In this document: piece by piece, positions 1,139 through 47,888 of the stretch
How the letters are laid out: each line of letters begins with the position of its first letter
Numbering within the stretch: the stretch's first letter is position 1
Notes under the pieces: generated by a model
The model's input: the letters and a program-made list of their open reading frames with translations, nothing else
Told to the model about the DNA's origin: nothing
The model's database searches: none
Made by a program: the position numbers and the translations under genes
DNA from: Brevibacillus sp. SYSU BS000544
GTDB taxonomy: Bacteria > Bacillota > Bacilli > Brevibacillales > Brevibacillaceae
Assembly (NCBI RefSeq): GCF_049846925.1
Contig: NZ_JBNCMT010000002.1
Span: 7,885 to 71,884, forward strand
Direction of reading: 5' to 3'
Length of the DNA: 64,000 bases

Positions 1139-1200
1139 AAAACACAGCGGCCGTCTAAGACTTTTTTTAATAAGTCCTAGTCCTGCCGCTGTGTTTTTTT
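1139..1200. terminator. Long inverted repeat with T-run; bidirectional terminator between convergent ppk2 and the AlaX-like gene
   Basis: aaacacagcgg ... ccgctgtgttt (11-bp arms) followed by ttttttt. Confidence 0.45.
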
Positions 1201-1243
1201 ATCTATTTCATATCCCAGTAACTCAAGAATTCCAATCCAAAAC

Positions 1244-2449: not shown

Positions 2450-2643
2450 ACGAACCTCTTTTCTGTGGAAATTTATTCCTGATACCATTCTATTTTACTT
2501 GTTTGCAAACAACTGTACTAATTATTCTAAGTCATGTAAACTGTGATGATCAAAACAGACTCTTACATGTCGTTCTGATAATGTAAAATGGACTTGATAA
2601 CCGAAACCACCAAATAGAAATAAACAGGGAGAGAACAAGTAAA

Positions 2644-6386: not shown

Positions 6387-6388
6387 AA

Positions 6389-20187: not shown

Positions 20188-20191
20188 GACA

Positions 20192-21190: not shown

Positions 21191-21225
21191 AATCCTCACC
21201 TATTCCTGCTAGTTCAGCCATAATT

Positions 21226-22500: not shown

Positions 22501-22530
22501 GGCTGCACCCTCCTTTCTTCGAACATACGT

Positions 22531-23897: not shown

Positions 23898-23910
23898 CTC
23901 CTATCCCCCC

Positions 23911-26124: not shown

Positions 26125-26136
26125 TTCCCTCCTTTA

Positions 26137-26757: not shown

Positions 26758-27009
26758 CCTTCTCTCCTCCAGTACCCTGTTTTTGAAGCTGTTTCGATTG
26801 TTGCATCAGAGCATCAAACCGTTTTTGCTGTTCATCCGTAATTTTGACCTTTCTTTCCACAATTGGCTTGGCTATTCCCTGATACTCTAAGTTGGATGAT
26901 CTGCTTTCAATTAGCGCACTCTCTGACTTTGCAGGCTGATTCGTGCACGCCGTCATCACCAGAATAGAAAGTACCAGGCAAGAATAAATGATCATCTGTT
27001 TACCCCGCA
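26735..27009 (-). CDS. Small putative lipoprotein/secreted protein (~90 aa)
   Basis: MRGKQMIIYSCLVLSILVMTAC signal with a lipobox-like TAC. Start inferred. Confidence 0.35.
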
Positions 27010-27173
27010 TTTTCTCACCTCCTGTTTCTAGTGAAATCGTATCACCTGCCCCACTGTACAAATGAACATGTTTGAAGGAGGCAGGGTGTGAATCTATCAC
27101 ATTTCGGTGTGCAAGATTGGGTGTTGTTCATCATTTGCACAAAAAAAAGCTACAAGTTTTAGAACTTGCAGCC

Positions 27174-28754
27174 TCATGTTACTATTTGAGAAATTTTAAG
27201 TGTGACAAAAACATTTAACAAATCTTCATACGAATTCAGGCTGATATCCAGTAGGCTTTCAATCTTCTTTAACCGATTTCGCAGCGTATTGGGATGAATA
27301 TAAAGAGAGTCAGAGGTTCGAGAAATATCTCCATTTTCCTGAACATACACTTCAAGCGTTCGAACCAATTCTCCATCATGCTCACGATCATACTCCAGTA
27401 ATTCTCCAAGGGTTTCTTTGAAGAATGTAATGAGAACATCGTTGTTAATGAGACAAAGTAACCGAATCACACCAATCTCTTCAAATAAAAATACGCCTTT
27501 TCTTTTCTGAAGAAATCTGCCCATTTCCAGTGCAATCTTCGCTTCCTGAAAACTCCGAAAAATCTCCAGGTTGGATCGATACAAACGCCCAATACCAACC
27601 GTAATCCTTACATCGGGAAACTTGCCTGCCAGTACCTGCTGAATTTGTGTTGCAAGGTATTTACTGAAATCTTTTCTTTCTTTTTTGGACTGTTTCTTTT
27701 CATCAAAAACAAAGACAACCACTTGATCCTGAAAATTTGTAACGATACCTGTAAGAGCCTGTGACTGGAGGATGAAGGTAATTTGATGCTTCATACTCTC
27801 CAAGAGTTCCATACTAAGGGACTGATCATTTTCGGAATGTAATTGCAGCACCATCAGCAACGGCTGCTTGGTAAAATTCCATCCCCAGAGTTTTCCTTGC
27901 GTAATCAACATCTCTTCCGATTCAAAATTGTTATACAAGACATCATAAAGAAACTGATTGGCGTATTTTCGATTCGTCTCAAGTATCGCTTCTTCTTTCT
28001 TAAACCAGGTCACGAGGCTTGGCAAAACCTGATGAACCAGTTCAATGGTCATATCAGTAATGGTTCCTCGCTCTTGTTTGATCAACAGGAATCCGTGGTT
28101 TTCCAGTTTGAACAGCAGAAACGATTCTTGTTGTTCTTGCAATAAACGGTAATCGTCTTTGGAACCGTTTCTCATCTGTACGTACCTTTGCTTCAAAAAT
28201 GTGTATTGATCCGAACCATCTACGGAGGGCATGGAAGAATGCAAAAAGAAAAAGGGGTCCAACAAGACAACTGGATTGTCGATGATCTCTGACAAACGAT
28301 CCAGCACTTTCTGGATATGATTCTCATTTATCATCGTGAGCCAGTATCTGGTCGATTGTTCCCACGCATACCGAAATAGTCCTAATTGCTTTAGTTTTTT
28401 CATTTCCTCAATCGTGCGAATGATGGAATCAAGGTCTGTATTGTCGAGAAACAGGACTGGTTTGTGTACCTCTTTGATTTTATCAAGTAGACTTGGACGA
28501 ATGTATTTTTTATCCAGATGGTAGAGTAAGACTCCCTGAATATAATCATGGTTTACTATCTCTGGAAGTTTTTGAATGTTTTCTTGCGATACTTCAAGAA
28601 TCAGCAGCGTTTGCCTCTTTACTGCTTGCAGATTTGACGCTACATCAATAAAGAAATTACCTTTTCCTGACCATCCACTAAGTATCTCAGCTTTCTGAAA
28701 AGGGTGCGCAATAATTAGCTCTTGAAAAGTCATCGTTGTTTCCAAATTACTCAC
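27174..28754 (-). CDS. PucR/CdaR-family transcriptional regulator
   Basis: 526 aa with a C-terminal PucR-type helix-turn-helix (…YIHPNTLRNRLKKIESLLDISL…). 4-nt overlap (ATGA) with the upstream 4Fe-4S gene. Confidence 0.75.
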   Translation of the reverse strand: MSNLETTMTFQELIIAHPFQKAEILSGWSGKGNFFIDVASNLQAVKRQTLLILEVSQENIQKLPEIVNHDYIQGVLLYHLDKKYIRPSLLDKIKEVHKPVLFLDNTDLDSIIRTIEEMKKLKQLGLFRYAWEQSTRYWLTMINENHIQKVLDRLSEIIDNPVVLLDPFFFLHSSMPSVDGSDQYTFLKQRYVQMRNGSKDDYRLLQEQQESFLLFKLENHGFLLIKQERGTITDMTIELVHQVLPSLVTWFKKEEAILETNRKYANQFLYDVLYNNFESEEMLITQGKLWGWNFTKQPLLMVLQLHSENDQSLSMELLESMKHQITFILQSQALTGIVTNFQDQVVVFVFDEKKQSKKERKDFSKYLATQIQQVLAGKFPDVRITVGIGRLYRSNLEIFRSFQEAKIALEMGRFLQKRKGVFLFEEIGVIRLLCLINNDVLITFFKETLGELLEYDREHDGELVRTLEVYVQENGDISRTSDSLYIHPNTLRNRLKKIESLLDISLNSYEDLLNVFVTLKISQIVT

Positions 28755-29317
28755 TCCCTCTCATCTTGTGCCCAGAAACGTTGTGATTGTACCTTTTTTT
28801 CTTTGAAACGAATAGAAGGACAAGTAATGGATTTCATCTGATAGGAAACGATTGCTTTTTGGTGCCCGGAGTTTTGCTCGCTGTTGATGTCGATGACCTG
28901 AATTGCACCCACAATGCATGATGAGACACAAGCAGGAAGCTCTCCCGACCTCTGCCTTTCCATACAAAAATCGCATTTGTCTGCTTTTCCCGTATCAGGA
29001 ATGATCGTTATTGCGTGAAACGGACAGGCATTGACGCATAACTTGCAGCCCGAACAGTTGCTTGAATCTAGCAGAACAATCCCATTCCGAGTCTTTTTAA
29101 TGCATGCAGTCGGACAAACAGACAAACAAGCAGGATTTTGACAATGGTTACAAGCGATTGACAGATAGCCGAAGATGTTTCCGTCATTTTGAGAAAGTGA
29201 AACCACTTTTCGTCGAGAGGTATCCTTTCGATTCCTTTCGTTTTTACAGGCAAATTCACAGGTTCGACACCCGATGCATTTTTGTGTATCAACCAAGAAA
29301 CCTAGCTGTTTTTCCAT
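28751..29317 (-). CDS. Second DmsB-like 4Fe-4S ferredoxin subunit
   Basis: CIGCRTCEFAC…CNHCQNPACLSVCP…CSGCKLCVNACP…CDFC…CVSSC. Confidence 0.8.
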   Translation of the reverse strand: MEKQLGFLVDTQKCIGCRTCEFACKNERNRKDTSRRKVVSLSQNDGNIFGYLSIACNHCQNPACLSVCPTACIKKTRNGIVLLDSSNCSGCKLCVNACPFHAITIIPDTGKADKCDFCMERQRSGELPACVSSCIVGAIQVIDINSEQNSGHQKAIVSYQMKSITCPSIRFKEKKVQSQRFWAQDERE

Positions 29318-29440
29318 GGGTAGCCCTTCAATTCTTCTCTGTCATGTTGGTTGCTAAAAATCTATCGTTAGTATACTATTAGCACGAATAATTGAGCGGC
29401 ACATATATTACAGATTGTTGAATCCTAAGGGGGTCAAAAC

Positions 29441-31525
29441 ATGCTCGAACCTTATACCGTAACCAGACATGTTTGCCCTCGCAACTGTTATAGTTCCTGC
29501 AGCATGCTAGGCTATTCCACTGATGGCATCCTTCAGAAAGTAGGAGGAGACCCTCTCCATGGCTACACAAAAGGAAAGCTCTGCCCCAAAGGCTTTAACT
29601 ATGTAAATCTCGTTTATCACCCTGAAAGAATCAAACACCCCATGATTCAGGAAAAGAGAGGCAGCGGCAAGTGGCGCAAGATTTCATGGGACACCGCTTT
29701 GGATATTATTTCTGAGAAAATCATTGAACTCCACCATCGCTATGATTCTCACCTGTCTCTTGCTCTGAATAAGTACTCAGGCAATTTCGGCATCTTGCAT
29801 CAAGCCGTAGAAGGAATGTTTAACAGCCTTGGTAAAACTTCAAGAGCAATCGGATCACCCTGTTGGTCACCAGGACTGGATGCCTTTCATTTTGATTTTG
29901 GTTGGCACCAAACATCTGATCTAGAAGATTTGATTCACGCCAAAACGATCATTCTCTGGGGTGTCAATCCGGTATGGACCTCGATTCATGCGCTTCCCTA
30001 TTTGTATCAGGCTAAAGAAATGGGCGCCACACTTATCACGATTGACCCAGTTTACACGGCAACTGCACAGAAATCCGATTTGTATTTTCAAGTGAAGCCA
30101 GGCAGTGACGGGGCTTTGGCACTTGCAATCGCCAAATACATCATTGATCATCAATTGCAAGACATGGATTTCATTGAAAAAAATACGGTTGGCTGGGATG
30201 AATGCAAAGCATATGTCGATTCCTTTCCAATGGAAGAGGCATTGCAAACGTGCGGTCAAACACTTGAAGCCATCAAGGAATTATCCTATCGGCTGATAGA
30301 AGGAGATCCTGTTTTTATTTGGACTGGATTCGGGTTACAGCGGCATGTACATGGTGGCCAAAGCATTCGAGCAATCAATGCTTTAGCAGCTATCACTGGG
30401 AATATTGGACGAAGAGGAAGTGGAGTACACTTTGCCAATGATCCCCAATGGAAGTTCACCTCAAACATTACAAAACACTTTCCGGATCATGTGGATCAGA
30501 ACAATTGCATCCGTCCGATTGACATTAATAACTTTGCAAAAGAGCTTCTTGGCCTGCAAGACCCTCCCGTGAAATTTCTCTGGATTTCTTGTCGCAACCT
30601 GTTAACCCAAAATCCGGATCGAGCTGTACTGATTCGGGCACTCCAATCATTAGAGCTGATTGTGACAGTCGACCTGTTCCTAACTCCCACAGCACAGTTA
30701 TCCGACATTGTCCTTCCTACCACAACGAATTTTGAAGAGTGGGATATTGTTTCAGGATACTGGCATCATTGGATCAGTATCAATCAGCCAGCAATCCCTC
30801 CTTATCACGAAAGTAAAAGTGATTTACAGATTGCCAAACTCTTATCCCAGAAATTAAATGAAAAGTCTCCCGGACTGTCTTCGTTTCCGACAGAAAAAAC
30901 GCCCATTCAATTTATTGAGGACGAATTTACTGATGAAATATATAGAGATCTGCAAATTTCTCAATGGACAGATCTTCTCAATGGCCCTAGAAGGAAACCT
31001 AGCCCCAATACAGCTTGGGAAAATTTACAGTTTGGCACTCCTTCTAAAAAAATTGAGCTTTATTCTCAATCGGCTGAAGATAGTTCCCTTCCGCCACTAG
31101 CTATGTATGTTCCTGCTCAGCAAGGAAACCAGAAATATCCCTATCGTCTGTTGATCACTCATGAACAATATCAAATCAATTCTCAATTTATTAATATTTA
31201 CTCGCTTCACGCAATCAAAACTGAACCGCACGTACTGCTTCACCCTGCGTTAGCAAAAGAAAGAAATATTGAATTGGGTGACATGGTGCGAATTTACAAC
31301 AATGATGGAGAGATGGTGATTAAAGCCAAGATTTCCTCGAGTGTAAGTAAATATACCCTACAAATTGCTCATTCGAATAACTTGCCCGTAAACAATCTGA
31401 TTTCGTTTATTCCTGCTGATATGGGAAAAGCAGTTACAGGTGCAAATGGTGTAGCGCTGAACGATACTTTTGTTGCTATTGAAAAGCTTGACGACATCAA
31501 ACTTGTCGAGTTACACCATCGTTAA
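29441..31525 (+). CDS. Second DmsA-like molybdopterin oxidoreductase catalytic subunit lacking a Tat signal (predicted cytoplasmic)
   Basis: Begins directly with the Fe-S motif VCPRNCYSSCSM at residue 12. Paralogous to 23911-26124 (KISWD…LNKYSGNF…). Ribosome-binding site AAGGGGG. Confidence 0.8.
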   Translation: MLEPYTVTRHVCPRNCYSSCSMLGYSTDGILQKVGGDPLHGYTKGKLCPKGFNYVNLVYHPERIKHPMIQEKRGSGKWRKISWDTALDIISEKIIELHHRYDSHLSLALNKYSGNFGILHQAVEGMFNSLGKTSRAIGSPCWSPGLDAFHFDFGWHQTSDLEDLIHAKTIILWGVNPVWTSIHALPYLYQAKEMGATLITIDPVYTATAQKSDLYFQVKPGSDGALALAIAKYIIDHQLQDMDFIEKNTVGWDECKAYVDSFPMEEALQTCGQTLEAIKELSYRLIEGDPVFIWTGFGLQRHVHGGQSIRAINALAAITGNIGRRGSGVHFANDPQWKFTSNITKHFPDHVDQNNCIRPIDINNFAKELLGLQDPPVKFLWISCRNLLTQNPDRAVLIRALQSLELIVTVDLFLTPTAQLSDIVLPTTTNFEEWDIVSGYWHHWISINQPAIPPYHESKSDLQIAKLLSQKLNEKSPGLSSFPTEKTPIQFIEDEFTDEIYRDLQISQWTDLLNGPRRKPSPNTAWENLQFGTPSKKIELYSQSAEDSSLPPLAMYVPAQQGNQKYPYRLLITHEQYQINSQFINIYSLHAIKTEPHVLLHPALAKERNIELGDMVRIYNNDGEMVIKAKISSSVSKYTLQIAHSNNLPVNNLISFIPADMGKAVTGANGVALNDTFVAIEKLDDIKLVELHHR

Positions 31526-34903: not shown

Positions 34904-36304
34904 TTAGCGAAACAGAATGAGAATTTGGTTCGGTCCGGTTCGTCTCATCACCCAATACCCGCTTTCTGTATTTGTAGCGATCCCGCCATCGCTGGGCAGG
35001 CAATAGCCGCCTACGAAACAAGTCCCGTCATCTCGGACGAGAAGCTTTCCGATTAGACCAACCGCTGCCCATTCCGGTCGATCCATACGAGATCGGCACG
35101 GTTTCTCCGGTTCCCAGAATGGATTGATTACAGGTCGTCTCTCGGTCCTCTCTGGAGCGAGAATTCTACCATCCTGATCAGTAACGGCTGGAAAAAAGAC
35201 ATCCTCGTACTGCTTGCGGTTCCATTCATCGAGCAGGAATTTGCCACAAGCAGGATCTTCCACATCGGCTAGATACCCTGGATTGGAGCTAGTCACTCCC
35301 AGAATGTAGCTATCACTTGCAGTTGCCTTACGAATTTTCTCACTACCACTGGCAAACGTCACGAAATAGCCTACGTCTATCAGCTCTCCGTTAGAAGATT
35401 CAAACATCTCTGCAAAGTCGCAGGCACCTGCGGAAGTGATTACTCCAGCCGTGGTTACCGTTGAATCGAAACAGGCGGTTCCGTTACTTTGGATTTTGGC
35501 GACGACACCCGCTGTAGAATACTGAGAAGGACCGTTCATCAGATACCAGGAAAAGGGCAGATCACCGCCAGCAGGGTTAGGCTGCCCGTCCCTCCCCATG
35601 ACATGGACACCTTGCAAGCCATTGGTGGCAGTAAAAAAGCCTTCTGCATGGGATTGGGCTGCGTCTGCCCTTGTATTGCTTCCTTGCGCATGAGAAGAAT
35701 TACCGGAAGCCTCCGTTGAACTACCCTCTGCATGAGCTGCAAAAGCTGAAGCAGTGGTAAAAGATCCCTCTGCATGAGCAGTGAAACCTGTAGCTTTCGT
35801 TGCACTACCCTCCGCATGAGAAGATACACCACTCGCAGTTGTCGTCTCACCCTCCGCATGAGCAGCAGAACCAGTAGCCTGGGTAAAAATGCCCTCCGCA
35901 TGGGAAAAATCACCGCTGGCAATCGGACCTGGGAAAAATTCAACATTGTTTGAACCCCCTTCCGCATGAGATGCAAATCCGCTGGCTCTAGTACCAACCC
36001 CTTCTGCATGAGATCCATTTCCGCTTGCTATTGTCTGGAAACCTTCCGCATGGGATGCCTCACCACTTGCTTTCGTAAGTTCTCCCTCGGCATGCGAGCC
36101 ATTCGCCTCAGCAATGGTTTGGTATCCTTCTGAATGAGCAGTCACACCAATGGCAGTAGTTTGATACCCTTCTGCATGCGAGGCTTCACCAAACGTAATC
36201 GTAAGTTCTCCTTCCGCATGGGACGCAGGCCCGCCTGCTGTAGTATTGTTCCCTTCCGCCTCCGAGCACGGACCAAAAGCGTTATTATTGCATCCATCTG
36301 GCAT
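34904..36304 (-). CDS. SHAEG-repeat protein A: conserved Cys-containing N-cap, ~13 copies of a 14-residue [AS]HAEGxxTxA[ST]Gxx repeat, conserved ~230-aa Cys-containing C-terminal domain; no signal peptide
   Basis: Direct reading of the translation (466 aa from MPDGCNNNAFGPC). Ribosome-binding site AAGGATGA; tandem with two paralogs. Confidence 0.75.
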   Translation of the reverse strand: MPDGCNNNAFGPCSEAEGNNTTAGGPASHAEGELTITFGEASHAEGYQTTAIGVTAHSEGYQTIAEANGSHAEGELTKASGEASHAEGFQTIASGNGSHAEGVGTRASGFASHAEGGSNNVEFFPGPIASGDFSHAEGIFTQATGSAAHAEGETTTASGVSSHAEGSATKATGFTAHAEGSFTTASAFAAHAEGSSTEASGNSSHAQGSNTRADAAQSHAEGFFTATNGLQGVHVMGRDGQPNPAGGDLPFSWYLMNGPSQYSTAGVVAKIQSNGTACFDSTVTTAGVITSAGACDFAEMFESSNGELIDVGYFVTFASGSEKIRKATASDSYILGVTSSNPGYLADVEDPACGKFLLDEWNRKQYEDVFFPAVTDQDGRILAPERTERRPVINPFWEPEKPCRSRMDRPEWAAVGLIGKLLVRDDGTCFVGGYCLPSDGGIATNTESGYWVMRRTGPNQILILFR

Positions 36305-36354
36305 AGGAATCATCCTTTCTTTTGTTGGCTTATCAGCGTTATCCTAACTTTGCA

Positions 36355-38049
36355 TTAACGGAATACAACAAGAACTTGATTGGTTCCAGTCCGTTTCAAT
36401 ATCCGATAACCTGTTTCAGATTTGGTGGCGATTCCCTCATTATTGGGCATACAGTACCCTCCAACTACACAGGTTCCGTCGTCTCGGACAAGGAGTTTGC
36501 CGATCATGCCCACTGCTGCCCATTCCGGTCTTTCCAAGCGGGAACGGCACGGCTTCTCCGGTTCCCAAAAAGGATTTAGAACAGGACGTTTCTCCATTCG
36601 TTCAGGAACGATAATATTGCCTTCCCGATCCGTAATAGCAGGAAGTACGATATCTTCGTACTGCTTGCGGTTCCATTCGTCGAGCAGAAATTTGCCACAT
36701 GCTGGGTCTTCCGCATCTGCCAGTACTCCTGGATTAGAGCTGGTGATCCCCAAAATGTAGTCGTCACTTGCGTTTGCTTTGCGGATTTTCTCACTGGCAC
36801 CGTCAAGGGTTACAAAATAACCAACGTCAATCAACTCGCCGGTTGAGGTTTCATACATCTCGGCAAAGTCGCAGGCGCCAGCAGCCGTGTTAAAGGCAGA
36901 GGCAGTAACTGTTGAATCGAAGCAGGCTGTGCCGTTACTTTGGATTTTGGCTACAACTCCTGCTGTTGAGTAAGGAGCGGCTCCGTTCACCAGAAACCAG
37001 GAAAAGGGTAGGTCGCCGCCAGCCGGGTTAGGGGCCCCATTTTGTCCCATGACGTGGACGCCTATCAAACCGTTTGCGCTGGTTCTTCCGCCCTCTGTAT
37101 GGGCTAACGATGCATTTGCTATGGTTGCAGATCCTTCTGCATGAGCTGAAGTAGCACTTGCTATACTGCCATCACCTTCCGCATGAGCCGATTGTCCTGT
37201 TGCTTGAGTACCAAGCCCTTCTGCGTGAGAGCCAAATCCGCTGGAGGTGGTACTGACACCCTCCGCATGAGCAGCAACTCCGCTGGCCTTGGTCTCAATG
37301 CCTTCCGCGTGAGAAGAAGGTCCGCTGGCTTCTGTAGAGGTTCCTTCTGCATGAGCCGCTCGTGCAGTAGCATCAGTGCCTTCCCCTTCCGCATGGGAGG
37401 CAAATCCGCTTGCTAATGTAGAGTTACCTTCCGCATGGGAAGAAACGCCGCTTGCTAGAGAAAACGCTCCTTCTACATGAGCGCCTAAGTTTGATGCTTC
37501 TGTTGTGAACCCCTCAGCATGAGAGGCAAATCCACTAGAGGTAGTTCCACTTCCTTCCGCATGGGAATTAACTCCGCTGGCCGTTGTGTTGTCTCCTTCC
37601 GCATGAGCAGCATCGTTTGTCGCCTTAGTAGATATACCTTCCGCATGGGAAAAGTTGCCGCTGGCTATCGGAGCAGGAGTAGAAGCAATATCTGGTGTAC
37701 CTCCTTCCGCATGAGCGCCGAGTCCACTGGCGGTTGTAGCAATCCCTTCTGCATGAGAGGCATTTCCACTTGCCGTTGCTTGGAAGCCTTCCGCATGGGA
37801 TGCCTCACCGCTTGCTTTCGTAAGTTCACCCTCGGCATGCGAGCCGTTCGCTTCAGCAATGGTTTGATATCCTTCTGAATGAGCAGTCACACCAATGGCA
37901 GTTGTCTGATATCCTTCCGCATGAGAAGCTTCACCAAAAGTAATGGTAAGTTCACCTTCCGCATGGGATGCAGGTCCACCAGCCGTGGTATTATTACCTT
38001 CCGCCTCCGAGCAAGGACCAAAAGCGTTATTATTGCATCCATCTGACAT
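36355..38049 (-). CDS. SHAEG-repeat protein B (paralog; ~21 repeats; 565 aa)
   Basis: Start at MSDGCNNNAFGPC with an AAAGGAGG ribosome-binding site 8 nt upstream. N-terminal ~95 aa identical to A at the protein level; conserved C-terminal domain ending GTNQVLVVFR. Confidence 0.75.
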   Translation of the reverse strand: MSDGCNNNAFGPCSEAEGNNTTAGGPASHAEGELTITFGEASHAEGYQTTAIGVTAHSEGYQTIAEANGSHAEGELTKASGEASHAEGFQATASGNASHAEGIATTASGLGAHAEGGTPDIASTPAPIASGNFSHAEGISTKATNDAAHAEGDNTTASGVNSHAEGSGTTSSGFASHAEGFTTEASNLGAHVEGAFSLASGVSSHAEGNSTLASGFASHAEGEGTDATARAAHAEGTSTEASGPSSHAEGIETKASGVAAHAEGVSTTSSGFGSHAEGLGTQATGQSAHAEGDGSIASATSAHAEGSATIANASLAHTEGGRTSANGLIGVHVMGQNGAPNPAGGDLPFSWFLVNGAAPYSTAGVVAKIQSNGTACFDSTVTASAFNTAAGACDFAEMYETSTGELIDVGYFVTLDGASEKIRKANASDDYILGITSSNPGVLADAEDPACGKFLLDEWNRKQYEDIVLPAITDREGNIIVPERMEKRPVLNPFWEPEKPCRSRLERPEWAAVGMIGKLLVRDDGTCVVGGYCMPNNEGIATKSETGYRILKRTGTNQVLVVFR

Positions 38050-38089
38050 GCAAAGCGCCTCCTTTATTGATAAGGCTTGTAAGTAGTTT

Positions 38090-39931
38090 TTAGCGGAACA
38101 AAACAAGAATCTGATTAGGCCCTGTCCGTTTCATTACCCAATATCCACTTTCTGTTTTCGTTGCGATCCCATCATTGTTGGGCATGCAATAACCAGCAGG
38201 TATACAGGTTCCATCGTCACGTACAAGAAGCTTGCCGACAAGCCCAACCGCAGCCCATTCAGGCCTTTCCATGCGAGATCGGCATGGCTTTTCCGGTTCC
38301 CAGAAGGGATTGCGAACAGGTCGTCTCTCCGTCCGCTCGGGAACGATTATATTGCCCTCGTGATCGGTAACTGCAGGATGTATGAAATCCTCATATTGTT
38401 TTCGGTTCCATTCATCGAGCAAAAATTTGCCACAAGCAGGGTCTTCCGAATCTGCAATGATCCCTGGATTGGAGCTTGTCACCCCTAGGATATAGCTGTC
38501 ACTTGCTGTTGCTTTACGGATTTTTTCCCCGGTTTCATCAAATGTCACGAAATAGCCGACGTCAATCGTCTCTCCGGTTGAAGATTCAAACATCTCAGCA
38601 AAGTCGCACGCTCCAGCAGAAGTGATTACCCCGGCTGTGGTTACCGTTGAATCGAAACATGCAGAGCCGTTACTCAGGATTTTGGCAACGACTCCAAAGT
38701 TTATCAGATACCAGGAAAAGGAGAGGTCACCGCTAAGAGGGTTCGGGCCGCCATTGGTTCCCATGACATGGGCACCTTGCAAACCACCGGCATGAGTTGC
38801 CAATCCTTCGGTATGGGAAAATGCTCCATTAGCGATTGTGCTTTGTCCCTCAGCATGGGACGCAGGTCCGCTGGCAGTTGTAAAGGTTCCTTCCGCATGA
38901 GCAGATAAACTGGAAGCTAGTGTACTATTTCCCTCTGCATGAGATGTAATTCCACTAGCCACTGTAGCTCCTCCCTCCGCATGGGATGCCGGTCCGCTGG
39001 CCTCGGTACTGAATCCTTCCGCATGAGCTGCAGCAACTGTAGCTTTCGTATTTGATCCCTCTGCATGGGAAGCTTGGGCACTGGCAATAGTTGTAAACCC
39101 TTCCGCATGAGCTCCTTCCGCTGTGGCTTGAGTAGATCTCCCTTCCGCATGAGCAGCAATGCCGCTAGCGATTGTGAGGAGGCCCTCCGCATGAGCATCC
39201 GGACCTGTCGCCTGTGTTTGTTCCCCTTCTGCATGAGCACCGGGACCGCTGGCAGTTGTATTTCTCCCTTCTGCGTGAGAGTGTGTACCGCTAGCAGTTG
39301 TCAGTGAACCCTCCGAATGAGCCGCATCACCTGTAGCCTTGGTTTGAGAACCCTCCGCATGAGAAACATCCCCTTCGGCCTTGGTTTGCAGACCTTCTGC
39401 ATGAGAAAAAGTTCCACTGGCCATGGACTCAGCACCCTCCGCATGAGCGGCATCTCCACTGGCAACTGAACCCTGCCCTTCCGCATGAGCCGCAGGGGCT
39501 GTAGCTTGTGTTCTTAATCCTTCTGCGTGGGAAAAATCACCGCTGGCAACCGGGCCTGGAGCAAATACAGGATTTTCTGTACCACCTTCGGCATGAGCGG
39601 CAAAGCCACTGGCGGTTGTCACAAAACCTTCCGCATGAGCGGCATTACCACTAGCAGTAGTCTGCAATCCTTCCGCATGCGATGCCTCACCGCTTGCAGT
39701 CGTAAGCTCCCCCTCTGCATGTGAACCATTTCCACCAGCTATCGTTTGGTATCCCTCCGAATGAGCAGTAACACCAATGGCAGTAGTCTGATATCCTTCC
39801 GCATGAGAGGCTTCGCCAAAAGTAATGGTTAGTTCGCCTTCCGCATGGGATGCGGGTCCACCTGCTGTCGTATTGTGCCCTTCCGCCTCAGCACACGGCC
39901 CAAAAGCGTTATTGTTGCATCCATCTGCCAT
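38090..39931 (-). CDS. SHAEG-repeat protein C (paralog; ~24 repeats; ~613 aa)
   Basis: Start MADGCNNNAFGPC (ribosome-binding site AGAAAGGATGA); alternative start at 39940. First gene of the three-gene array. Confidence 0.75.
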   Translation of the reverse strand: MADGCNNNAFGPCAEAEGHNTTAGGPASHAEGELTITFGEASHAEGYQTTAIGVTAHSEGYQTIAGGNGSHAEGELTTASGEASHAEGLQTTASGNAAHAEGFVTTASGFAAHAEGGTENPVFAPGPVASGDFSHAEGLRTQATAPAAHAEGQGSVASGDAAHAEGAESMASGTFSHAEGLQTKAEGDVSHAEGSQTKATGDAAHSEGSLTTASGTHSHAEGRNTTASGPGAHAEGEQTQATGPDAHAEGLLTIASGIAAHAEGRSTQATAEGAHAEGFTTIASAQASHAEGSNTKATVAAAHAEGFSTEASGPASHAEGGATVASGITSHAEGNSTLASSLSAHAEGTFTTASGPASHAEGQSTIANGAFSHTEGLATHAGGLQGAHVMGTNGGPNPLSGDLSFSWYLINFGVVAKILSNGSACFDSTVTTAGVITSAGACDFAEMFESSTGETIDVGYFVTFDETGEKIRKATASDSYILGVTSSNPGIIADSEDPACGKFLLDEWNRKQYEDFIHPAVTDHEGNIIVPERTERRPVRNPFWEPEKPCRSRMERPEWAAVGLVGKLLVRDDGTCIPAGYCMPNNDGIATKTESGYWVMKRTGPNQILVLFR

Positions 39932-40187
39932 TTGAGTCATCCTTTCTGGTTACTTGATCATGTTTTGCTTTGATCCATCTCTTTCCTTGAAAAAGAAGTT
40001 TACGAGATATTCACCCAAAGGGAACTAGGCTACTATTTACTTCGATAAATAACAATACAGTTTATGAAAGAATGAGAAGTTTGCTTGTTCGAGTGACATG
40101 CCCGTTACCGCATGGATACGCAGGTTAATAACCATTTTTAGGGGAATTGGTACTTATTTAGCAATATTTTGGGGAGGTGAGAATCCT

Positions 40188-40253
40188 ATGTTCTCATATA
40201 AAAAAAACGACATCTCTGCCGTTTTCATAGTAGTTTACTATGGTGAACAATAG
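40188..40253 (+). CDS. Possible 21-aa peptide MFSYKKNDISAVFIVVYYGEQ
   Basis: Perfect ribosome-binding site GGGGAGGTGA 7 nt upstream of ATG. Lies between two minus-strand genes. Confidence 0.25.
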   Translation: MFSYKKNDISAVFIVVYYGEQ

Positions 40254-43777: not shown

Positions 43778-46700
43778 CTATGGTGCTGATTTTACAACAA
43801 CGGTAATCTTCACTCTTTTCTTTCCGTAGGATGCAGTAATTGTTGTCTCTCCTGCTTTGAGTCCTTTTATTTTTCCATCCTTCACCGTAGCAATGCTTTT
43901 GTCTTTGGAACTCCAGACTACGCCATCTTTCTCTGTAACCAGAACTGAGTCGTTGTCTGCTGTATAAAGGGCACTCAAGGTAACTTCTACCTCGCTCTCC
44001 TCAGCAAGCTCAACTTCTGTCTGACTCGCTGTCAGCTTTTTCAGCGTGACATCGATAGGGATTGTTACTGTTTTTTCATCAAACGTTGCAGTAATTGTAC
44101 CCTTGCCAAACTTGCCGGTTGAGACAACATAGCCATCCTTATCGATTTCTACAATTTGAGGTGATGAGAAATTCCACTCGACACGATGGTCGTTCGTTAC
44201 TTCGAAATTTTTTGTTTTCGAAACCCAGGCCAACAGTTTTAGTGGCTTACTGCTTCTATTTCCAGGTTTTAACGAAAGCTTCTCTACGTTAAAGGAAAGA
44301 GATTCTATGGAATCACCAAACAGAGCAATTTTGAGAGTTTTTCCACCATATCGCGCGATAATCGTTCCTTTTCCGCTCTTATTTACGGTAATGGTACCCT
44401 CGTCATCTACCGTAGCAAAATTTTCGCTGCCCCCATCAATTGACCAGTCTATTTCATCCCCTGTCAAATCCACGATCGTTTTATCAGACAAAACTGCTTT
44501 CACAGGAATGCTTACGGATTTTTCTGGGGCAACCACCAGTTTTTTGACTGTCGTCTGGATCGATTTTATCGTGGAATCTACCTGAATCACGACTTGTTTT
44601 CCGCCGAAGGAAGCTGTCACATCGATTTTGCCAAAATCCTTGGCAGCAATGATTCCATCTTTACTCACTGTAAATGCACTCTGGTTCTCATTGTATTTCC
44701 AGTCCACCTTGGATGGATCAACTGGAACTGTACTACCATCTTGGAGGACAGCTACAAGAGTGATCGGATTGTCCTGTGTACTGGTTCCAGGTTTAAGTGC
44801 AACCTTTGTTTTTGAAGCTTTCAGCAACTTAATAGTGGAGTCGACGGTGAATTCAATCGTATTTGACTCAAAAGTTGCTTTGATCGATGCAATTCCGTAG
44901 TCTTTGACGGAGATCGTACCATTATCTACAGTTGCCACCGCAGCATTGGAGGATGTCCATGTGGCAAGACCGGTAACGTTTTTTCTCGATCCATCCGAAT
45001 ACATCGCTTCCAGCGTCACAGGATACGTATCACCAGGCCGTTTCACGATCATTGTTGTACTAGGGCTTGCACTCAATCCAGTTAGTGTAACTGGTATTGG
45101 AATAGGAACGGGAGTAGGTGAATTAACGGTTACTTCAAACGTTTTTGACTCAAACGTTGCTTTGATCATAGCCGTTCCATAGCCTACGACAGTAATCGTA
45201 CCCTTATCGGCAGTCGCCACCGCAGCATTGGAGGTTGTCCAGGTAGCCTGATCGGTAACGGATTTTTTTGATCCATCCGAATAGGTTGCTTCCAACGTCA
45301 CTGGATACGTATCGCCTGGTTTTTTCTCGATTTTCGTTGCATTTGGGTTAGCAGTCAATCCCGTTATTGTGGCTGGAGGTGGAGCTTGATCACTGACAAC
45401 AATTTCAATCTTTTTTGCCCCATGCGATGCTCTGACCGTTGTAATTCCTTTGCCTACAACAGTAATTATACCTTTATCGACAGTTGCCACCTCAGTATTG
45501 TAGGCTTCCCACGTAGCGAGTTCGGTAACATCTTTTTTCGATCCATCCGAATAGGTCGCTTCCAGCGTCACAGCATACGTATCGCCGGGTTGTTTCACGA
45601 TCCACGTTGCACTTGGGGTAGGAGTCAATTCAGTTACTCTGGGTTTCGTGGGATCGTTAGACTCGACGGTTAATCTAATCGATTTTCCCTCGAATGTGGC
45701 TTTGATCGTTGTATATCCTAAACCTACGACAGTAATCATGCCCTTATCGACAGTTGCAACATTTGAATTGTCAGTTTTCCACTTAGCCAAATCGGTGACC
45801 GTTTTTTTCGATCCATCCGAATAAATCGCTTCCAGCGTCACAGGATACGTATCGCCAGGTGCCGTCAAGATCGTAGTTTCACTCGGGGTAGCAATCAATC
45901 CCGTTACTGTAGGTGTATTGGGATCGCCTGCATCGATCGTTAATTCAACCGATTTATTCCCATACGTTGCTGTGATCGTAGCTTTTCCGTAGCCTACGAC
46001 AACAATCGTACCGTAATTTATTGTCGCCACCGCAGGATTGGAGGTTGTCCAGGTAGCCTTGTTATTAACGAACTCTGTCGTTCCATTGGAATAGACCGCT
46101 TGCAGCCATACATTATATGCTTCGCCAGGTTTTTTCACGATCGTTGTTTCACTTGGAATGGTTTTTAATTCAACTACTGTGACCGGAGGCGGATCGGTGG
46201 CCTCAACGATTATTTCATACGTTTTTGTCTCAAAAGTTGCTTTGATCGTAGCCGTTCCGGGGCCAACGACAGAAATTTCCCCTTTATCTACAGTCGCCAC
46301 CGCAGGGTCGGAGGTTGTCCACGTAGCAAGGTTGTCTGCCGGTTTCACCGATCCATCCGAATAACTTGCAAACAGATCCACTTGATACTTGTTACCAGTA
46401 TGTTTCACGATCTTTTTTACATTAAAGTTGGTATACAATTCAGTTACTCTAAGTCTATTGCCATCGATCAGTACAATATCCTGCGTGGTACTTTGGTTGG
46501 CGATAATGATACCCTCACTTCCTTCAGGAGTGGGATACCCGTCCTTTGCAGCTTTTGCAAAATATTGACCAGCCTGAAGACCACCAATCACATAGTTTCC
46601 ATCCTTGTCCGTATATGCGGTGTAGGCACCGGCGTTTCTCGAATCATAAACCGTTACCAAAGCATGCGGAACCTTATTCCCATATTCATCTGTAACGACG

Positions 46701-47737
46701 CCTGTAAGCGTTCCATTATCCGCACTTGGTGCATAAGGGATGGTGAAATCAACGTTACATACTCCCGACTTTTCACATTGGATGTAACCCTTATCCACAA
46801 CTACGACTACACCCAAATCCTTGTTCTCCACTTCAGCTCGTACTTTATACGATCCAGACATAATGATGTCAGATTGGAACTCACCTTCATTCGGGTAGAA
46901 CTCATAGCCGTGTTCAGCCGACTTCATCGTCACCAGAACATCGATATTGCCATCTGACAATTTTTCGCCTGTTGCATACTCCTTAACAGTACCAAGCACC
47001 TTTGAGGCATCCCCACTATTTGCTGTAGGGATGTAAATGTGAAGATCCTTTGTTACGCCAGCAGCAATTTCATAAAAACTTCCATAGGTACGAACGAGCC
47101 CCCCGCCTGCATAGGTTTCTGCTGTGAGCGTATAGGCAGGTTTAATAGGAGAATATTCCGCTGGCGGGATTCCGCCAATCGAGAATTTGCTTATGCCATC
47201 GCCAAATTTCGTGTTACCGGAAAACGTCCAAGTCCGTTTGTTTTTCGGGTCAGTAAGTGAAACACCGTAATAACCTTCAGGTGCTTGAGCGCCACTAACC
47301 GTTACGACTCCTTCAAATGCGCCTGTTGCGCTGCCAGCAGTAAGAGATAATGGGAAAGAAAGAACTGTTTCTTTTCCGCTATCAATACGGATATCCTCTT
47401 GGCGAAACGACAGATTGCTAATCCCTGCACTGAGTGCATAAGAATCCTGCGGCAGTCCGCTGAACGAGAAGTTTCCATCTGCATCCGAATTTGCTGTCCA
47501 TTGTTTGGATCGGTCTGTTTCACTTCTCAGCTCTACCATTTGTCCCGGTAGCCCTTTTCCATCTTGGTCTGTTACGGTTCCTCTCAGTATCCCAGTCGCG
47601 TCCACAGACTCATCTTGACTATTCTTTGCCTTGTTTACTTCTGTGTCACTTGCGGCGCTAACAATGGATGGCATTCCACCCATCAGTAGAGCCAAAATTA
47701 AAAAGATTTTGGCTGTCCAGCTTACGCTATTTTTCAT
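43778..47737 (-). CDS. Large secreted cell-surface protein: signal peptide, carboxypeptidase-regulatory-like (CarbopepD_reg) domains, then ~10 bacterial Ig-like Big_2 domains
   Basis: Signal MKNSVSWTAKIFLILALLMGGMPSIVSA. Repeated …ATWTTS(D/N)PAVATVDKGxITVVGxGTATIKAT… units. The domains DGNFSFSGLPQDSY and DKDGNYVIGGLQAGQY. Confidence 0.75.
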   Translation of the reverse strand: MKNSVSWTAKIFLILALLMGGMPSIVSAASDTEVNKAKNSQDESVDATGILRGTVTDQDGKGLPGQMVELRSETDRSKQWTANSDADGNFSFSGLPQDSYALSAGISNLSFRQEDIRIDSGKETVLSFPLSLTAGSATGAFEGVVTVSGAQAPEGYYGVSLTDPKNKRTWTFSGNTKFGDGISKFSIGGIPPAEYSPIKPAYTLTAETYAGGGLVRTYGSFYEIAAGVTKDLHIYIPTANSGDASKVLGTVKEYATGEKLSDGNIDVLVTMKSAEHGYEFYPNEGEFQSDIIMSGSYKVRAEVENKDLGVVVVVDKGYIQCEKSGVCNVDFTIPYAPSADNGTLTGVVTDEYGNKVPHALVTVYDSRNAGAYTAYTDKDGNYVIGGLQAGQYFAKAAKDGYPTPEGSEGIIIANQSTTQDIVLIDGNRLRVTELYTNFNVKKIVKHTGNKYQVDLFASYSDGSVKPADNLATWTTSDPAVATVDKGEISVVGPGTATIKATFETKTYEIIVEATDPPPVTVVELKTIPSETTIVKKPGEAYNVWLQAVYSNGTTEFVNNKATWTTSNPAVATINYGTIVVVGYGKATITATYGNKSVELTIDAGDPNTPTVTGLIATPSETTILTAPGDTYPVTLEAIYSDGSKKTVTDLAKWKTDNSNVATVDKGMITVVGLGYTTIKATFEGKSIRLTVESNDPTKPRVTELTPTPSATWIVKQPGDTYAVTLEATYSDGSKKDVTELATWEAYNTEVATVDKGIITVVGKGITTVRASHGAKKIEIVVSDQAPPPATITGLTANPNATKIEKKPGDTYPVTLEATYSDGSKKSVTDQATWTTSNAAVATADKGTITVVGYGTAMIKATFESKTFEVTVNSPTPVPIPIPVTLTGLSASPSTTMIVKRPGDTYPVTLEAMYSDGSRKNVTGLATWTSSNAAVATVDNGTISVKDYGIASIKATFESNTIEFTVDSTIKLLKASKTKVALKPGTSTQDNPITLVAVLQDGSTVPVDPSKVDWKYNENQSAFTVSKDGIIAAKDFGKIDVTASFGGKQVVIQVDSTIKSIQTTVKKLVVAPEKSVSIPVKAVLSDKTIVDLTGDEIDWSIDGGSENFATVDDEGTITVNKSGKGTIIARYGGKTLKIALFGDSIESLSFNVEKLSLKPGNRSSKPLKLLAWVSKTKNFEVTNDHRVEWNFSSPQIVEIDKDGYVVSTGKFGKGTITATFDEKTVTIPIDVTLKKLTASQTEVELAEESEVEVTLSALYTADNDSVLVTEKDGVVWSSKDKSIATVKDGKIKGLKAGETTITASYGKKRVKITVVVKSAP

Positions 47738-47888
47738 GTTGTGTGCCCCTTTTAGTAGAATAAAATGCAATACATCTTGATTCTGAAATTCTACCGAACC
47801 ATTCTCACAAAAAACTCACAAAACTGGATCGAAAATAATGCATAAAAAAAACAGCACCTGAATGAAATCTCAAGTGCCGTTTTTTTGT

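Follow-up and report, generated by a model that had tools for sequence, protein, structure and literature searches.

Three tandem Brevibacillus genes predicted to encode self-cleaving β-roll fibres, possibly of the spore surface

Introduction

In the Peptidase_S74 fibres, among them the endosialidases, the L-shaped tail fibre of phage T5, and MyRF, a C-terminal trimerizing chaperone removes itself after folding a trimeric β-structure. Two fibre proteins of phage T4 coordinate metal through HxH motifs: gp37 binds Fe2+ on the axis of its tip, and gp12 binds Zn2+. Expression of BclA, an exosporium nap glycoprotein, is driven by mother-cell sigma factors. The solved heads of trimeric autotransporters are β-rolls in which positions 5 and 7 of the repeat form the trimer core and each layer contributes a rise of 4.8 Å; position 7 lies nearest the axis, and position 5 may face the neighbouring chain (PMC9543794).

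Here, we describe an array of three Brevibacillus genes, A, B, and C, that lies in a 64-kb stretch of DNA analysed at its full length (the window) and that combines elements of these systems. The balance of the evidence tips, though not far, toward reading the three products as precursors of trimeric, self-cleaving β-roll fibres, likely located on the spore surface.

Results

The array consists of three co-oriented genes on the minus strand that encode 466 (A), 564 (B), and 613 (C) residues, at the positions given for them in the preliminary description (Table 1). Start codons were chosen from the position of the ribosome-binding site, AAAGGA or AAAGGAGG, which precedes each of the three starts by exactly 8 nt, such that every gene does have a site of its own, as had been proposed. 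The lengths of 466, 565, and ~613 residues reported previously hold for A and C, whereas B is one residue shorter from this start; likewise, the 40-nt spacing holds for the gap from C to B, but that from B to A is 50 nt. A terminator-like hairpin upstream insulates the array from read-through. The product of gene A is identical to a database protein (P0001) labelled as that of a Brevibacillus sp. SYSU isolate.

Table 1. Features of the array in window coordinates; a slash between residues marks a predicted cut.
Feature	Coordinates	Strand	Basis
Terminator-like hairpin of the preceding dehydrogenase gene	40203..40226	-	Sequence scan
Region upstream of the array, which must hold the promoter; only CATAAACTG at -135	39932..40202	-	Motif scan
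Ribosome-binding site AAAGGA, gene C, 8 nt before ATG at 39931	39940..39945	-	Sequence
Gene C, 613-aa putative fibre precursor, MADGC... to ...GPNQILVLFR and stop	38090..39931	-	ORF; start by ribosome-binding-site spacing; Pfam
Gene C N-terminal ~95 aa, Cys cap and about six units	39647..39931	-	Paralogue identity
Gene C β-roll, 26 units, aa 14-385, H at position 5, E at position 7	38777..39892	-	Unit spacing; register versus BpaC
Gene C 8th unit, 22 residues, conserved 8-residue loop AHAEGGTENPVFAPGPVASGDF	39533..39598	-	Unit spacing; same position in A, B
Gene C predicted autocleavage site, Cys442/Asp443, C/DFAEMFE	38603..38608	-	3gqh_A alignment; 57-sequence invariance
Gene C Peptidase_G2 domain, aa 443-613, predicted released	38093..38605	-	Pfam; 3gqh_A alignment
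Ribosome-binding site AAAGGAGG, gene B, 8 nt before ATG at 38049	38058..38065	-	Sequence
Gene B, 564-aa putative fibre precursor, MSDGC... to ...GTNQVLVVFR and stop	36355..38049	-	ORF; start by ribosome-binding-site spacing; Pfam
Gene B N-terminal ~95 aa	37765..38049	-	Paralogue identity
Gene B β-roll, 22 units, aa 14-329	37063..38010	-	Unit spacing
Gene B Peptidase_G2 domain, aa 394-564, predicted cleavage Cys393/Asp394	36358..36870	-	Pfam
Ribosome-binding site AAAGGA, gene A, 8 nt before ATG at 36304	36313..36318	-	Sequence
Gene A, 466-aa putative fibre precursor, MPDGC..., stop 34904-34906	34904..36304	-	ORF; start by ribosome-binding-site spacing; Pfam
Gene A N-terminal ~95 aa	36020..36304	-	Paralogue identity
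Gene A β-roll, 15 units, aa 14-231, pLDDT 94-99	35612..36265	-	Unit spacing; AlphaFold monomer model
Gene A Peptidase_G2 domain, aa 296-466, predicted cleavage Cys295/Asp296	34907..35419	-	Pfam; model

The repeats of all three proteins are a YadA-type left-handed β-roll, the fold previously suggested from their periodicity. The Pfam model YadA_head (PF05658) scores 30.1 bits in C, above the cut-off of 25, and 14 bits in A and B, and the modelled roll of A matches the heads of BpaC, CbpF, UspA1, and BoaA with a Foldseek probability of 1.0. The 14-residue spacing is exact, as first described; the counts of ~13, ~21, and ~24 units are not retained, the totals being 15 in A, 22 in B, and 26 in C with the degenerate first (SEAEG) and last (SHTEG) units included. 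The single conserved, proline-containing interruption is likewise real and falls in the 8th unit of all three proteins, which an 8-residue insertion extends to 22 residues, all other spacings being 14. The same loop recurs across genera and is present in the B. cereus-group protein P0085. At the DNA level, the 42-nt period is only 65–80% identical (Tandem Repeats Finder), which indicates that the repeats are old and diverged.

Conservation within the unit is pronounced: across the 63 units of A, B, and C, position 8 is always G, and the other frequent residues are E at position 7 (62/63), H at 5 (60/63), A at 6 (56/63), T at 11 (55/63), and A at 13 (54/63). In 84 homologues comprising 1,917 units, position 5 is H in 94% and position 7 is E in 95%, values that are somewhat inflated by the way units were seeded. 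In register with BpaC, H takes the place of T at position 5 and E that of T, S, or N at position 7; in register with CbpF, E replaces F at position 7. The hydrophobic β-branched residues expected at these two positions are absent. As the preliminary description had surmised, His and Glu are thus predicted by this register to occupy both trimer-core positions, in about 95% of units.

The C-terminus, ~235 residues of which are conserved among A, B, and C, is an intramolecular-chaperone autocleavage domain of the Peptidase_G2 type with its Asp/Glu cleavage motif intact. This region, described earlier as a conserved ~230-residue domain, is not novel, as its last 171 residues match Peptidase_G2 (PF11962) at 109, 111.9, and 111.4 bits (cut-off 25). 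Phage phi29 gp12 is matched at E = 7.5e-15, and Foldseek aligns the gene A model with the released gp12 fragment 3gqh_A at E = 2.6e-12, with a target-normalized TM-score of 0.78 and 34% identity. The first residue of that fragment aligns with the Asp of C/DFAEMFE, and DFAEMFE (A and C) or DFAEMYE (B) aligns with DFAEYFE of gp12. Four residues here (D296, A298, E299, and E302 in gene A numbering) are invariant in 57 family sequences. The residue before the predicted cut is Cys in A, B, and C, Ala in most of the family, and Ser in phi29; in the gene A monomer model, pLDDT falls below 50 at residues 281–296, just before this point. Mature proteins are predicted to have lost this domain by cleavage. 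A common ending, GPNQIL(I/V)LFR, had been ascribed to all three proteins and is indeed found in A and C, but B ends in GTNQVLVVFR. A Pfam scan of A, B, and C gave no match to Peptidase_S74.

As for the suggestion that the family was undescribed, thousands of database proteins already bear the name 'peptidase G2 autoproteolytic cleavage domain-containing protein', but we found no paper on the family itself; the family is large, unstudied, and spread over endospore-forming Bacillota. The preliminary description had named membership of a known family, combined with exposed, non-conserved His and Glu, as grounds for its refutation, and half of this applies: the domains do score to known families, whereas His and Glu are conserved in homologues and the core positions are not exposed.

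The 78 best homologous loci are all from endospore-forming Bacilli or Clostridia, a restriction to spore formers that is confounded with phylogeny, and tandem arrays, the largest having 6 copies, occur at 10 of 81 loci. In the B. cereus-group homologues P0015, P0085, and the L039 product, a TIGR03720 exosporium leader is recognized at 52–57 bits (cut-off 23), and the leader and collagen repeats are followed by the same cap, SHAEG repeats, and chaperone domain. A, B, and C carry neither this leader nor any known coat or exosporium targeting motif among the NCBIfam profiles; collagen GXX repeats and a C1q-like C-terminal domain are absent from them in Pfam, and no spore-coat or exosporium genes were found flanking the array in the window. 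None of the family members examined has a signal peptide. The reported lack of signal peptide, TM segment, and LPXTG motif in A, B, and C is confirmed, with a maximal Kyte-Doolittle 19-residue mean of 1.16 and no hydrophobic N-terminus.

The promoter regions of the homologues point in the same direction as the leaders. A −10 box of the mother-cell type, CATAnnnTA, precedes 31 of 79 homologues (39%) and 70 of 636 neighbouring genes (11%; Fisher p = 2.5e-9), and the enrichment is sharper when only the interval from −100 to −15 is considered (29/79 versus 41/636; p = 1.6e-12), although no perfect box was seen in 61% of homologues. TATAAT is depleted (8% versus 20% in neighbouring genes). The closest Brevibacillus homologues have a CATAnnnTA box at −40. 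A check for σK/σE-type promoters upstream of the array itself had also been suggested; the scan of this region found no consensus match to σ70, σK, or σE. Sporulation-specific expression of the array in the window is therefore predicted from its homologues. The spore-fibre hypothesis of the preliminary description nevertheless gains support from the exosporium leaders of homologues, the lack of signal peptides, and the CATAnnnTA enrichment.

Over the first 95 residues, A and B are identical at 92 positions, with 26 synonymous and 3 non-synonymous codon differences; A and C are identical at 87, with 34 synonymous and 8 non-synonymous differences, and B and C also at 87. Residues 134–217 are only about 50–60% identical among the paralogues. 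As synonymous differences far outnumber non-synonymous ones and the middle has diverged, the purifying selection previously claimed for the N-terminus is real, though the strict identity of A and B is not. Other species show the same pattern: in most arrays whose cap could be identified, paralogues resemble each other more closely over the N-terminal 90 residues than in the middle. This N-terminal conservation also favours the spore-fibre hypothesis.

Reading the N-terminal cap as a targeting signal is harder to sustain. The Cys-containing cap, MxxGCNxNxxGxCSEAEG, is conserved family-wide, and in the B. cereus-group proteins it sits behind the exosporium leader and collagen region; for this reason, it looks like a β-roll cap and not a targeting signal. 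What is specific to the paralogues is the conservation of the entire first ~95 residues, variable positions included.

Discussion

In the model that we favour, each gene would give rise to the precursor of a homotrimeric, rod-shaped fibre, the structure prediction itself being of the monomer. The C-terminal 171 residues would bring three chains into register and nucleate folding of the upstream β-roll, and the chaperone domain would then remove itself between the Cys and the Asp of C/DFAEMFE, leaving mature chains of 295 (A), 393 (B), and 442 (C) residues. With 15, 22, and 26 layers at 4.8 Å each, the rods would be about 7, 11, and 12.5 nm long. In every layer, each chain would contribute a His (position 5) and a Glu (position 7) to the lining of the trimer core, which is most economically read as a buried ladder of His-Glu hydrogen bonds and salt bridges. 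Since export signals are absent, the most likely course is synthesis in the mother cell late in sporulation, followed by deposition on the spore surface. The ~95 conserved N-terminal residues may form the proximal, anchored end, and the variable later repeats and neck the exposed one. The array would then yield fibres of three graded lengths that share the same base.

Alternatively, the genes could encode the fibres with which a phage-derived particle (tailocin, gene-transfer agent, or satellite of a prophage located elsewhere in the genome) binds its receptor, or be decaying remnants of such genes, with no role in the spore. Phage fibres typically contain modules of both kinds. The chaperone domain is shared with pre-neck appendage or receptor-binding proteins of phi29, Staphylococcus, and Bacillus phages, and YSHAEG..T.A.G repeats are found to the letter in the tail spike of a Flavobacterium phage and the tail fibre of a Verrucomicrobia phage. 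The PHROG family phrog_25468 is matched at E = 7e-76, and the viral structure matches include YadA-like proteins of Caudovirales and giant viruses. However, the absence of a surrounding prophage that had been noted before holds both locally, 40 ORFs across the window being all metabolic, regulatory, or restriction-modification genes, and more widely, no phage neighbour recurring around the 78 best homologous loci. Moreover, no phage record covers at least 80% of the protein, all three genes are intact and evolve under purifying selection, and the leaders and promoters described above are of exosporium and mother-cell type. We regard this origin as unlikely.

A similarly low probability attaches to the proteins being vegetative-cell or biofilm-matrix adhesins, comparable to trimeric autotransporter heads and released non-classically or by lysis. 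Homology of the β-roll to adhesin heads is compatible with such a role, JGI labels many homologues 'autotransporter adhesin', and the mature proteins are acidic (pI 4.7–4.9), as is the BpaC head (PMC9543794). Against it, A, B, and C show, besides their lack of export and sorting signals, no cell-wall-binding domain and no match to an autotransporter β-barrel; a σ70 promoter is missing upstream of the array, and TATAAT is depleted before homologues.

Less probable again is a scaffold that primarily binds or stores metal, wherever it is located, in which three His and three Glu per layer would hold a cation on or near the three-fold axis; the HxE pair on one strand in about 95% of layers recalls the HxH sites of T4 gp37 and gp12. 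With position 7 nearest the axis and position 5 possibly facing the neighbouring chain (PMC9543794), such a site might not come together, and a ladder of salt bridges between His and Glu accounts for the conservation equally well.

The preferred reading, of self-cleaving fibres likely on the spore surface, also has a more far-reaching form, to which we assign an equally small chance: an unrecognized class of spore-surface fibre, distributed among endospore-forming Bacillota and assembled by a co-opted phage tail-spike chaperone, in which the HxE pairs of successive 4.8 Å layers would build either a column of 13–24 cation sites, each of three His and three Glu, or a His/Glu wire that conducts protons. 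To our knowledge, a continuous His/Glu cation column or proton wire on the three-fold axis has been seen in no solved fibre or β-solenoid.

Comparison with known systems

The same His/Glu subtype of the roll is found, at 38–51% identity, in the tail spike of Flavobacterium phage immuto, the tail fibre of Verrucomicrobia phage P8625, and Pithovirus collagen-repeat proteins, for which our literature search returned no structural or functional study. The two phage proteins inspected, those of immuto and P8625, do not end in Peptidase_G2 and are located among virion genes.

The trimeric autotransporter heads (YadA, BpaC 7o23, BoaA 3s6l, UspA1, and CbpF) have in common with A, B, and C the 14-residue left-handed parallel β-roll, with G at position 8 and small residues at 4, 6, 11, and 13. 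BpaC, the best match in sequence and structure, also has a hydrophilic core (PMC9543794), built from Thr, Ser, and Asn where A, B, and C have His and Glu and YadA has Val and Ile. In contrast to the autotransporters, A, B, and C lack a signal peptide, β-barrel anchor, and coiled-coil stalk, their host is Gram-positive, and trimerization is presumably driven by a cleavable chaperone domain instead of a membrane anchor. Membership of the trimeric autotransporter adhesins (type Vc) was rejected, there being no hydrophobic N-terminus and no YadA-like β-barrel anchor; NCBIfam adhesin models score 13–26 bits against cut-offs of 600–3000, and Pfam gives no anchor domain.

The BclA-family exosporium nap glycoproteins are trimeric fibres without signal peptides, as proposed here, and mother-cell expression, known for BclA, is suggested for the present family by the promoter enrichment. 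The TIGR03720 leader and collagen-like region are shared with BclA by the B. cereus-group homologues, whereas A, B, and C lack the leader, the collagen repeats, and the C1q-like C-terminal domain, and their shaft is a β-roll and not a collagen triple helix. With the Peptidase_S74 fibres, the three proteins would have the logic of the chaperone in common, the chaperone families being non-homologous.

The nearest counterpart of the chaperone is phi29 gp12 (Peptidase_G2, PF11962, MEROPS G2), homologous over the C-terminal 171 residues with the Asp and downstream Glu aligned. In both, the domain comes after a β-solenoid that is trimeric in gp12 and predicted to be so here. The passenger of gp12 is a right-handed, enzymatic β-helix, whereas that of A, B, and C is a left-handed YadA-type β-roll with no virion or phage context, and a Cys takes the place of the Ser before the predicted cut. 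The three Brevibacillus genes appear to have taken over from phage tail spikes an assembly domain that removes itself.

Organization of the gene array

Genes A, B, and C lie head to tail. Each ATG is preceded by AAAGGA or AAAGGAGG at a distance of exactly 8 nt, as revealed by inspection of the sequence, and this distance fixes the lengths of the three products. The preliminary description of the array is borne out with only minor numerical corrections: its lengths for A and C stand, B encodes 564 rather than 565 residues, and the spacing of 40 nt holds for the gap between C and B, the gap between B and A being 50 nt. The G+C content of the array is 0.49–0.52 compared with about 0.43, which we infer to be an effect of Ala/Gly-rich coding and not evidence of transfer.

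Features of the array and other genes in the window (window numbering)
Feature	Position (nt)	Strand	Product	Basis or remark
Three head-to-tail ORFs	34904-39940	minus		ORF call
Gene A	start 36304	minus	466 aa	in-frame ATG and ribosome-binding-site spacing
Gene B	start 38049	minus	564 aa	in-frame ATG and ribosome-binding-site spacing
Gene C	start 39931	minus	613 aa	in-frame ATG and ribosome-binding-site spacing
22-residue repeat unit in gene C	39533-39598			equivalents in A and B
Terminator-like hairpin of preceding dehydrogenase gene	40226-40203			insulates the array
Type I restriction-modification genes	5184-7798	minus	specificity (HsdS-like), methylase (HsdM)	
MoaA and TatC genes	19462-21199			directly upstream of molybdoenzyme sets
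Two DMSO-reductase-type molybdoenzyme gene sets	21442-31525		molybdopterin subunit, 4Fe-4S subunit, DmsC anchor, delta-type chaperone	either side of PucR-family regulator
Large surface or secreted protein	43778-47770	minus	1,330 aa	CarboxypepD_reg, hyaluronate-lyase N-terminal beta-sheet, and Big_2 domains; about 4 kb from array

A β-roll with His and Glu at the core positions

With the H-A-E-G motif as anchor, the products of A, B, and C contain 15, 22, and 26 units, respectively, spaced by exactly 14 residues; the strict period described previously is retained, and the earlier copy numbers (~13, ~21, and ~24) are replaced. Over all units of the three proteins, Gly at position 8 is invariant (63/63), followed by Glu at position 7 (62/63), His at position 5 (60/63), Ala at position 6 (56/63), Thr at position 11 (55/63), and Ala at position 13 (54/63). 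The corresponding 42-nt period is conserved to only 65–80% in the DNA, so the repeats are old and do not stem from recent slippage. The sole exception to the spacing is a 22-residue unit, which is always unit 8. Its 8-residue loop, GGT.D.....P.P, is found family-wide, and the full unit, HAEGGT.D.....P.P.ALGD, is kept across genera. The loop is also seen in the homologous loci L014, L025, L036, L043, L047, L061, L069, L071, L072, L076, and L079, and in the window it forms the border between the paralogue-conserved and the variable parts.

As modeled, the repeats are a YadA-type left-handed parallel β-roll. The AlphaFold model of A, a monomer, has a mean pLDDT of 86, with values of 94–99 over the roll, and a structure search matches this roll to the heads of the adhesins BpaC, CbpF, UspA1, and BoaA. 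Pfam YadA_head scores C above its cut-off and A and B below it. The likeness to YadA-head/Hep_Hag repeats noticed from the sequence is therefore upheld. In the numbering of the BpaC paper (PMC9543794), the canonical unit is GxNSVAIGAxSxAx, positions 5 and 7 form the trimer core, and each layer rises by 4.8 Å. Aligned to BpaC, the position-5 His corresponds to Thr and the position-7 Glu to Thr, Ser, or Asn; aligned to CbpF, the position-7 Glu corresponds to Phe. This register agrees with the earlier assignment of His and Glu to the two core positions. By alignment to these solved heads, the trimer core of A, B, and C would thus be charged.

The C-terminal chaperone domain

The conservation of the C-terminal region is confirmed, and what had been taken for a single domain resolves into a neck of roughly 55–65 residues and a 171-residue stretch matching Pfam Peptidase_G2 ("IMC autoproteolytic cleavage domain"; 109–112 bits in A, B, and C; cut-off 25). 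Among solved structures, the best relatives are gp12 of phage phi29 (E = 7.5e-15), which is a pre-neck appendage or tail spike, and the C-terminal fragment released from it, 3gqh. Residue 1 of this 163-residue fragment is aligned to the Asp of C/DFAEMFE (slash, scissile bond), and DFAEYFE of gp12 aligns to DFAEMFE residue for residue; the Asp, the Ala, and both Glu residues of the motif are invariant in a 57-sequence family alignment. The AlphaFold model of A superimposes on 3gqh_A with a target-normalized TM-score of 0.78 at 34% identity, and its least confident stretch, residues 281–296, directly precedes the scissile bond. According to work by Xiang and co-workers in 2009, the gp12 domain reportedly trimerizes, chaperones the upstream trimeric β-structure, and then removes itself. 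In line with the alignment to 3gqh, we take the gp12 cleavage site to be Ser691/Asp692.

The residue before the invariant Asp (aa 295, 393, and 442 in the window proteins) differs among clades: Brevibacillus and the B. cereus group have Cys, most members Ala, a Vallitaleaceae MAG Pro or Thr, and phi29 gp12 Ser. A further conserved Cys lies 17 residues upstream of this position and two more are located in the N-terminal cap, making disulfide cross-linking possible.

Conservation of the N-terminal region

The first 95 residues of A and B are identical at 92 of 95 positions, falling short of the strict A/B identity first reported, and those of C match A and B at 87 of 95 positions each. The strong conservation itself stands, the codon differences between A and B in this region being 26 synonymous and 3 nonsynonymous; over residues 134–217, identity among the paralogues is only about 50–60%. 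Neither a transmembrane segment, an LPXTG motif, nor a hydrophobic N-terminus is present in A, B, or C, in accord with the earlier statement that signal peptides and anchors are missing. The cap, MxxGCNxNxxGxCSEAEG, is found family-wide among homologue N-termini. An acidic extension, MSDQNEMKSSENQ.EE.Q.QE(I/V)G, precedes the Cys cap in homologues from about nine species (Lysinibacillus, Ectobacillus, Paenibacillus, Oceanobacillus, Halalkalibacter, Bacillus arachidis, and B. fengqiuensis; loci L011, L014, L020, L037, L045, L047, L052 with four genes, and L061), and it may be an alternative targeting peptide.

Distribution of the family

At least 7,991 cluster representatives match the family (7,991 of 8,000 scored candidates), mostly under the name [quoted passage not shown] and at JGI often as "autotransporter adhesin"; the product of gene A is identical to a database protein of a Brevibacillus sp. 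isolate. One cluster, P0059, is labeled Vibrio vulnificus (541 aa); its size and match statistics are near those of Peribacillus/Bacillus clusters, and the label is probably due to contamination or a mislabeled Bacillota contig. When one genome per species was scanned, 261 relatives were obtained, of which the best 78 loci were analyzed; these include Bacillus, Brevibacillus, Paenibacillus, Priestia, Lysinibacillus, and Clostridium, among other genera, as well as Desulfoscipio, Pelotomaculum, and Sporotomaculum. Among 1,917 in-register units from 84 of these proteins, about 94–95% have His at position 5 and Glu at position 7, a proportion somewhat inflated by seeding, and the pair is thus a family hallmark rather than a local oddity.

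Of 81 loci, 10 contain tandem arrays, the largest of six copies. In most arrays with a locatable cap, conservation among the paralogues is higher over the N-terminal ~90 residues than over the middle repeats; one exception is the B. gaemokensis pair. Judged from these sequences, such a pattern would be expected if the paralogues shared one end for anchoring and diversified in the part that is exposed. A Vallitaleaceae MAG carries six co-oriented copies (L058, 4689-15099), some sharing the N-terminal 90 residues and others the neck, and Bacillus fengqiuensis carries four (L052, 9206-17774).

Relation to phage and viral fibers

The SHAEG-type repeats are 45–51% identical to those of a Flavobacterium phage tail spike and a Verrucomicrobia phage tail fiber, both of which contain literal YSHAEG..T.A.G repeats, and the chaperone domain occurs in Staphylococcus and Bacillus phage appendage proteins at about 30% identity. 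No record in the phage database reaches 80% coverage of the protein. Giant-virus collagen-repeat and related proteins carry a roll 38–43% identical to that of gene A, so the pairing of collagen with a His/Glu roll is not limited to B. cereus-group spores. These structure matches include Klosneuvirus A0A1V0SLC5, Fadolivirus A0A7D3QU64, and Pithovirus LCPAC401 A0A481ZAB7, the last with an rmsd of 0.9 Å over 238 columns.

Forty ORFs over the whole 64 kb are all metabolic, regulatory, or restriction-modification genes, with no phage gene among them, and all-against-all ORF clustering of 80 loci yields no recurrent neighbor, partner, or phage structural gene, extending the earlier remark that phage genes are missing nearby. 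Membership in a prophage or tailocin is rejected on the features tested. Linkage is not claimed for glycosyltransferases or Ger-type germination genes, whose occurrence is too scattered (8 and about 9 loci, respectively). The building blocks are viral-fiber modules, and the Peptidase_G2/SHAEG family itself is cellular.

Probable association with spores

The best 78 of the 261 relatives all come from endospore-forming Bacilli or Clostridia, a restriction confounded with phylogeny. Four independent observations converge and point to a spore link for the family: the lack of signal peptides, the fusions to an exosporium leader, a mother-cell-type −10 element, and the conserved N-terminal end of paralogues in the tandem arrays described above. 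No signal peptide is found in any family member examined, which suits assembly in the mother cell. In B. cereus-group homologues, the cap, SHAEG repeats, and chaperone domain stand behind a BclA-type exosporium leader (TIGR03720, 52–57 bits; cut-off 23) together with GxT repeats of collagen-like type; in Paenibacillus and B. gaemokensis, some members have collagen repeats without the leader. The −10 element common to mother-cell sigma factors, CATAnnnTA, scanned as a fixed pattern over 200 nt, is found upstream of 31 of 79 homologues versus 70 of 636 neighboring genes at the same loci (Fisher p = 2.5e-9), with 8.6 ± 2.7 expected from shuffles and 4 for the reverse complement. The element clusters at about −35 to −60 relative to the start codon (29/79 homologues versus 41/636 neighbors for the interval −100 to −15; p = 1.6e-12), TATAAT is depleted upstream of the homologues, and the nearest Brevibacillus homologues have the CATAnnnTA box at −40.

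The sigma-K- or sigma-E-type promoter considered in the preliminary description does not appear upstream of the window array: no consensus sigma-K, sigma-E, or sigma-70 promoter is present, only CATAAACTG at −135, and neither pattern scans (sigma-K, E, F, G, and A) nor sigma-70 prediction gives a convincing match. A GG-N10-GC match spotted by eye was judged to be due to chance. No known targeting motif was found in A, B, or C, and no spore genes flank them in the window.

In Priestia megaterium (L083, JAMAVD010000014.1), the contig of one homologue is Rep3-plasmid-like, and the gene is surrounded by those for three GT4 glycosyltransferases, an NAD-dependent epimerase, and a sulfotransferase and by three DUF1796 genes, which suggests a glycosylated surface fiber locus. 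In B. megaterium, plasmids carry part of the exosporium determinants, which are as yet unidentified (PMC4674009), and a connection with this locus is offered as a lead only. A full-text literature search returned no paper tying Peptidase_G2 or YadA-like proteins to spores and no publication on the family; the domain is mentioned in only 14 papers, all in other contexts.

Proposed model

We propose that the chaperone domain would trimerize the precursor, after which the β-roll would fold and the chaperone would cleave itself off at Cys/Asp, so that the mature chains would have 295, 393, and 442 residues. The products would be rods of about 7, 11, and 12.5 nm, predicted to be acidic (pI 4.7–4.9), with three His and three Glu per core layer. 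The simplest core would be a buried ladder of His–Glu hydrogen bonds and salt bridges; a more speculative one would be a column in which cations are bound, for which the HxH iron sites in the fiber tip of T4 gp37 provide the analogy. The ~95 conserved N-terminal residues would attach the rods to a partner that they share, most likely on the spore surface, and the variable part would be displayed. Trimerization, cleavage, and core chemistry are inferred, the modeled structure being a monomer. The fiber-plus-chaperone architecture is very probable, the location of the window array on the spore surface is evenly balanced, and the model of self-cleaving trimeric fibers, likely on the spore surface, is mildly favored as a whole.

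Significance and comparison with known systems

Spore surfaces determine how spores adhere, disperse, and interact with hosts, and beyond the collagen-like BclA proteins and Ena pili, the surface fibers of most endospores are, to our knowledge, molecularly unknown. The Peptidase_G2/SHAEG family is a concrete candidate for such fibers well beyond the B. cereus group, and it represents a self-cleaving phage tail-spike chaperone reused by cells with phage genes absent around it. Of its parts, the C-terminal domain was known before. The family has been catalogued by domain name yet is unstudied, and its distinguishing traits are the His/Glu-core β-roll and a probable use as spore fibers. A charged instead of a hydrophobic trimer core would challenge the picture of how such rods are stabilized, and possible uses include pH- or metal-responsive protein nanofibers and spore display.

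A, B, and C are bona fide members of the Peptidase_G2 domain family only. Membership among the autotransporters is rejected, as the proteins have neither signal peptide nor barrel, and so is membership among the BclA proteins, as leader, collagen, and C1q domain are all missing. They would share the mode of assembly with the phage tail spike, the shape with the autotransporter adhesin head, and probably the location with BclA.
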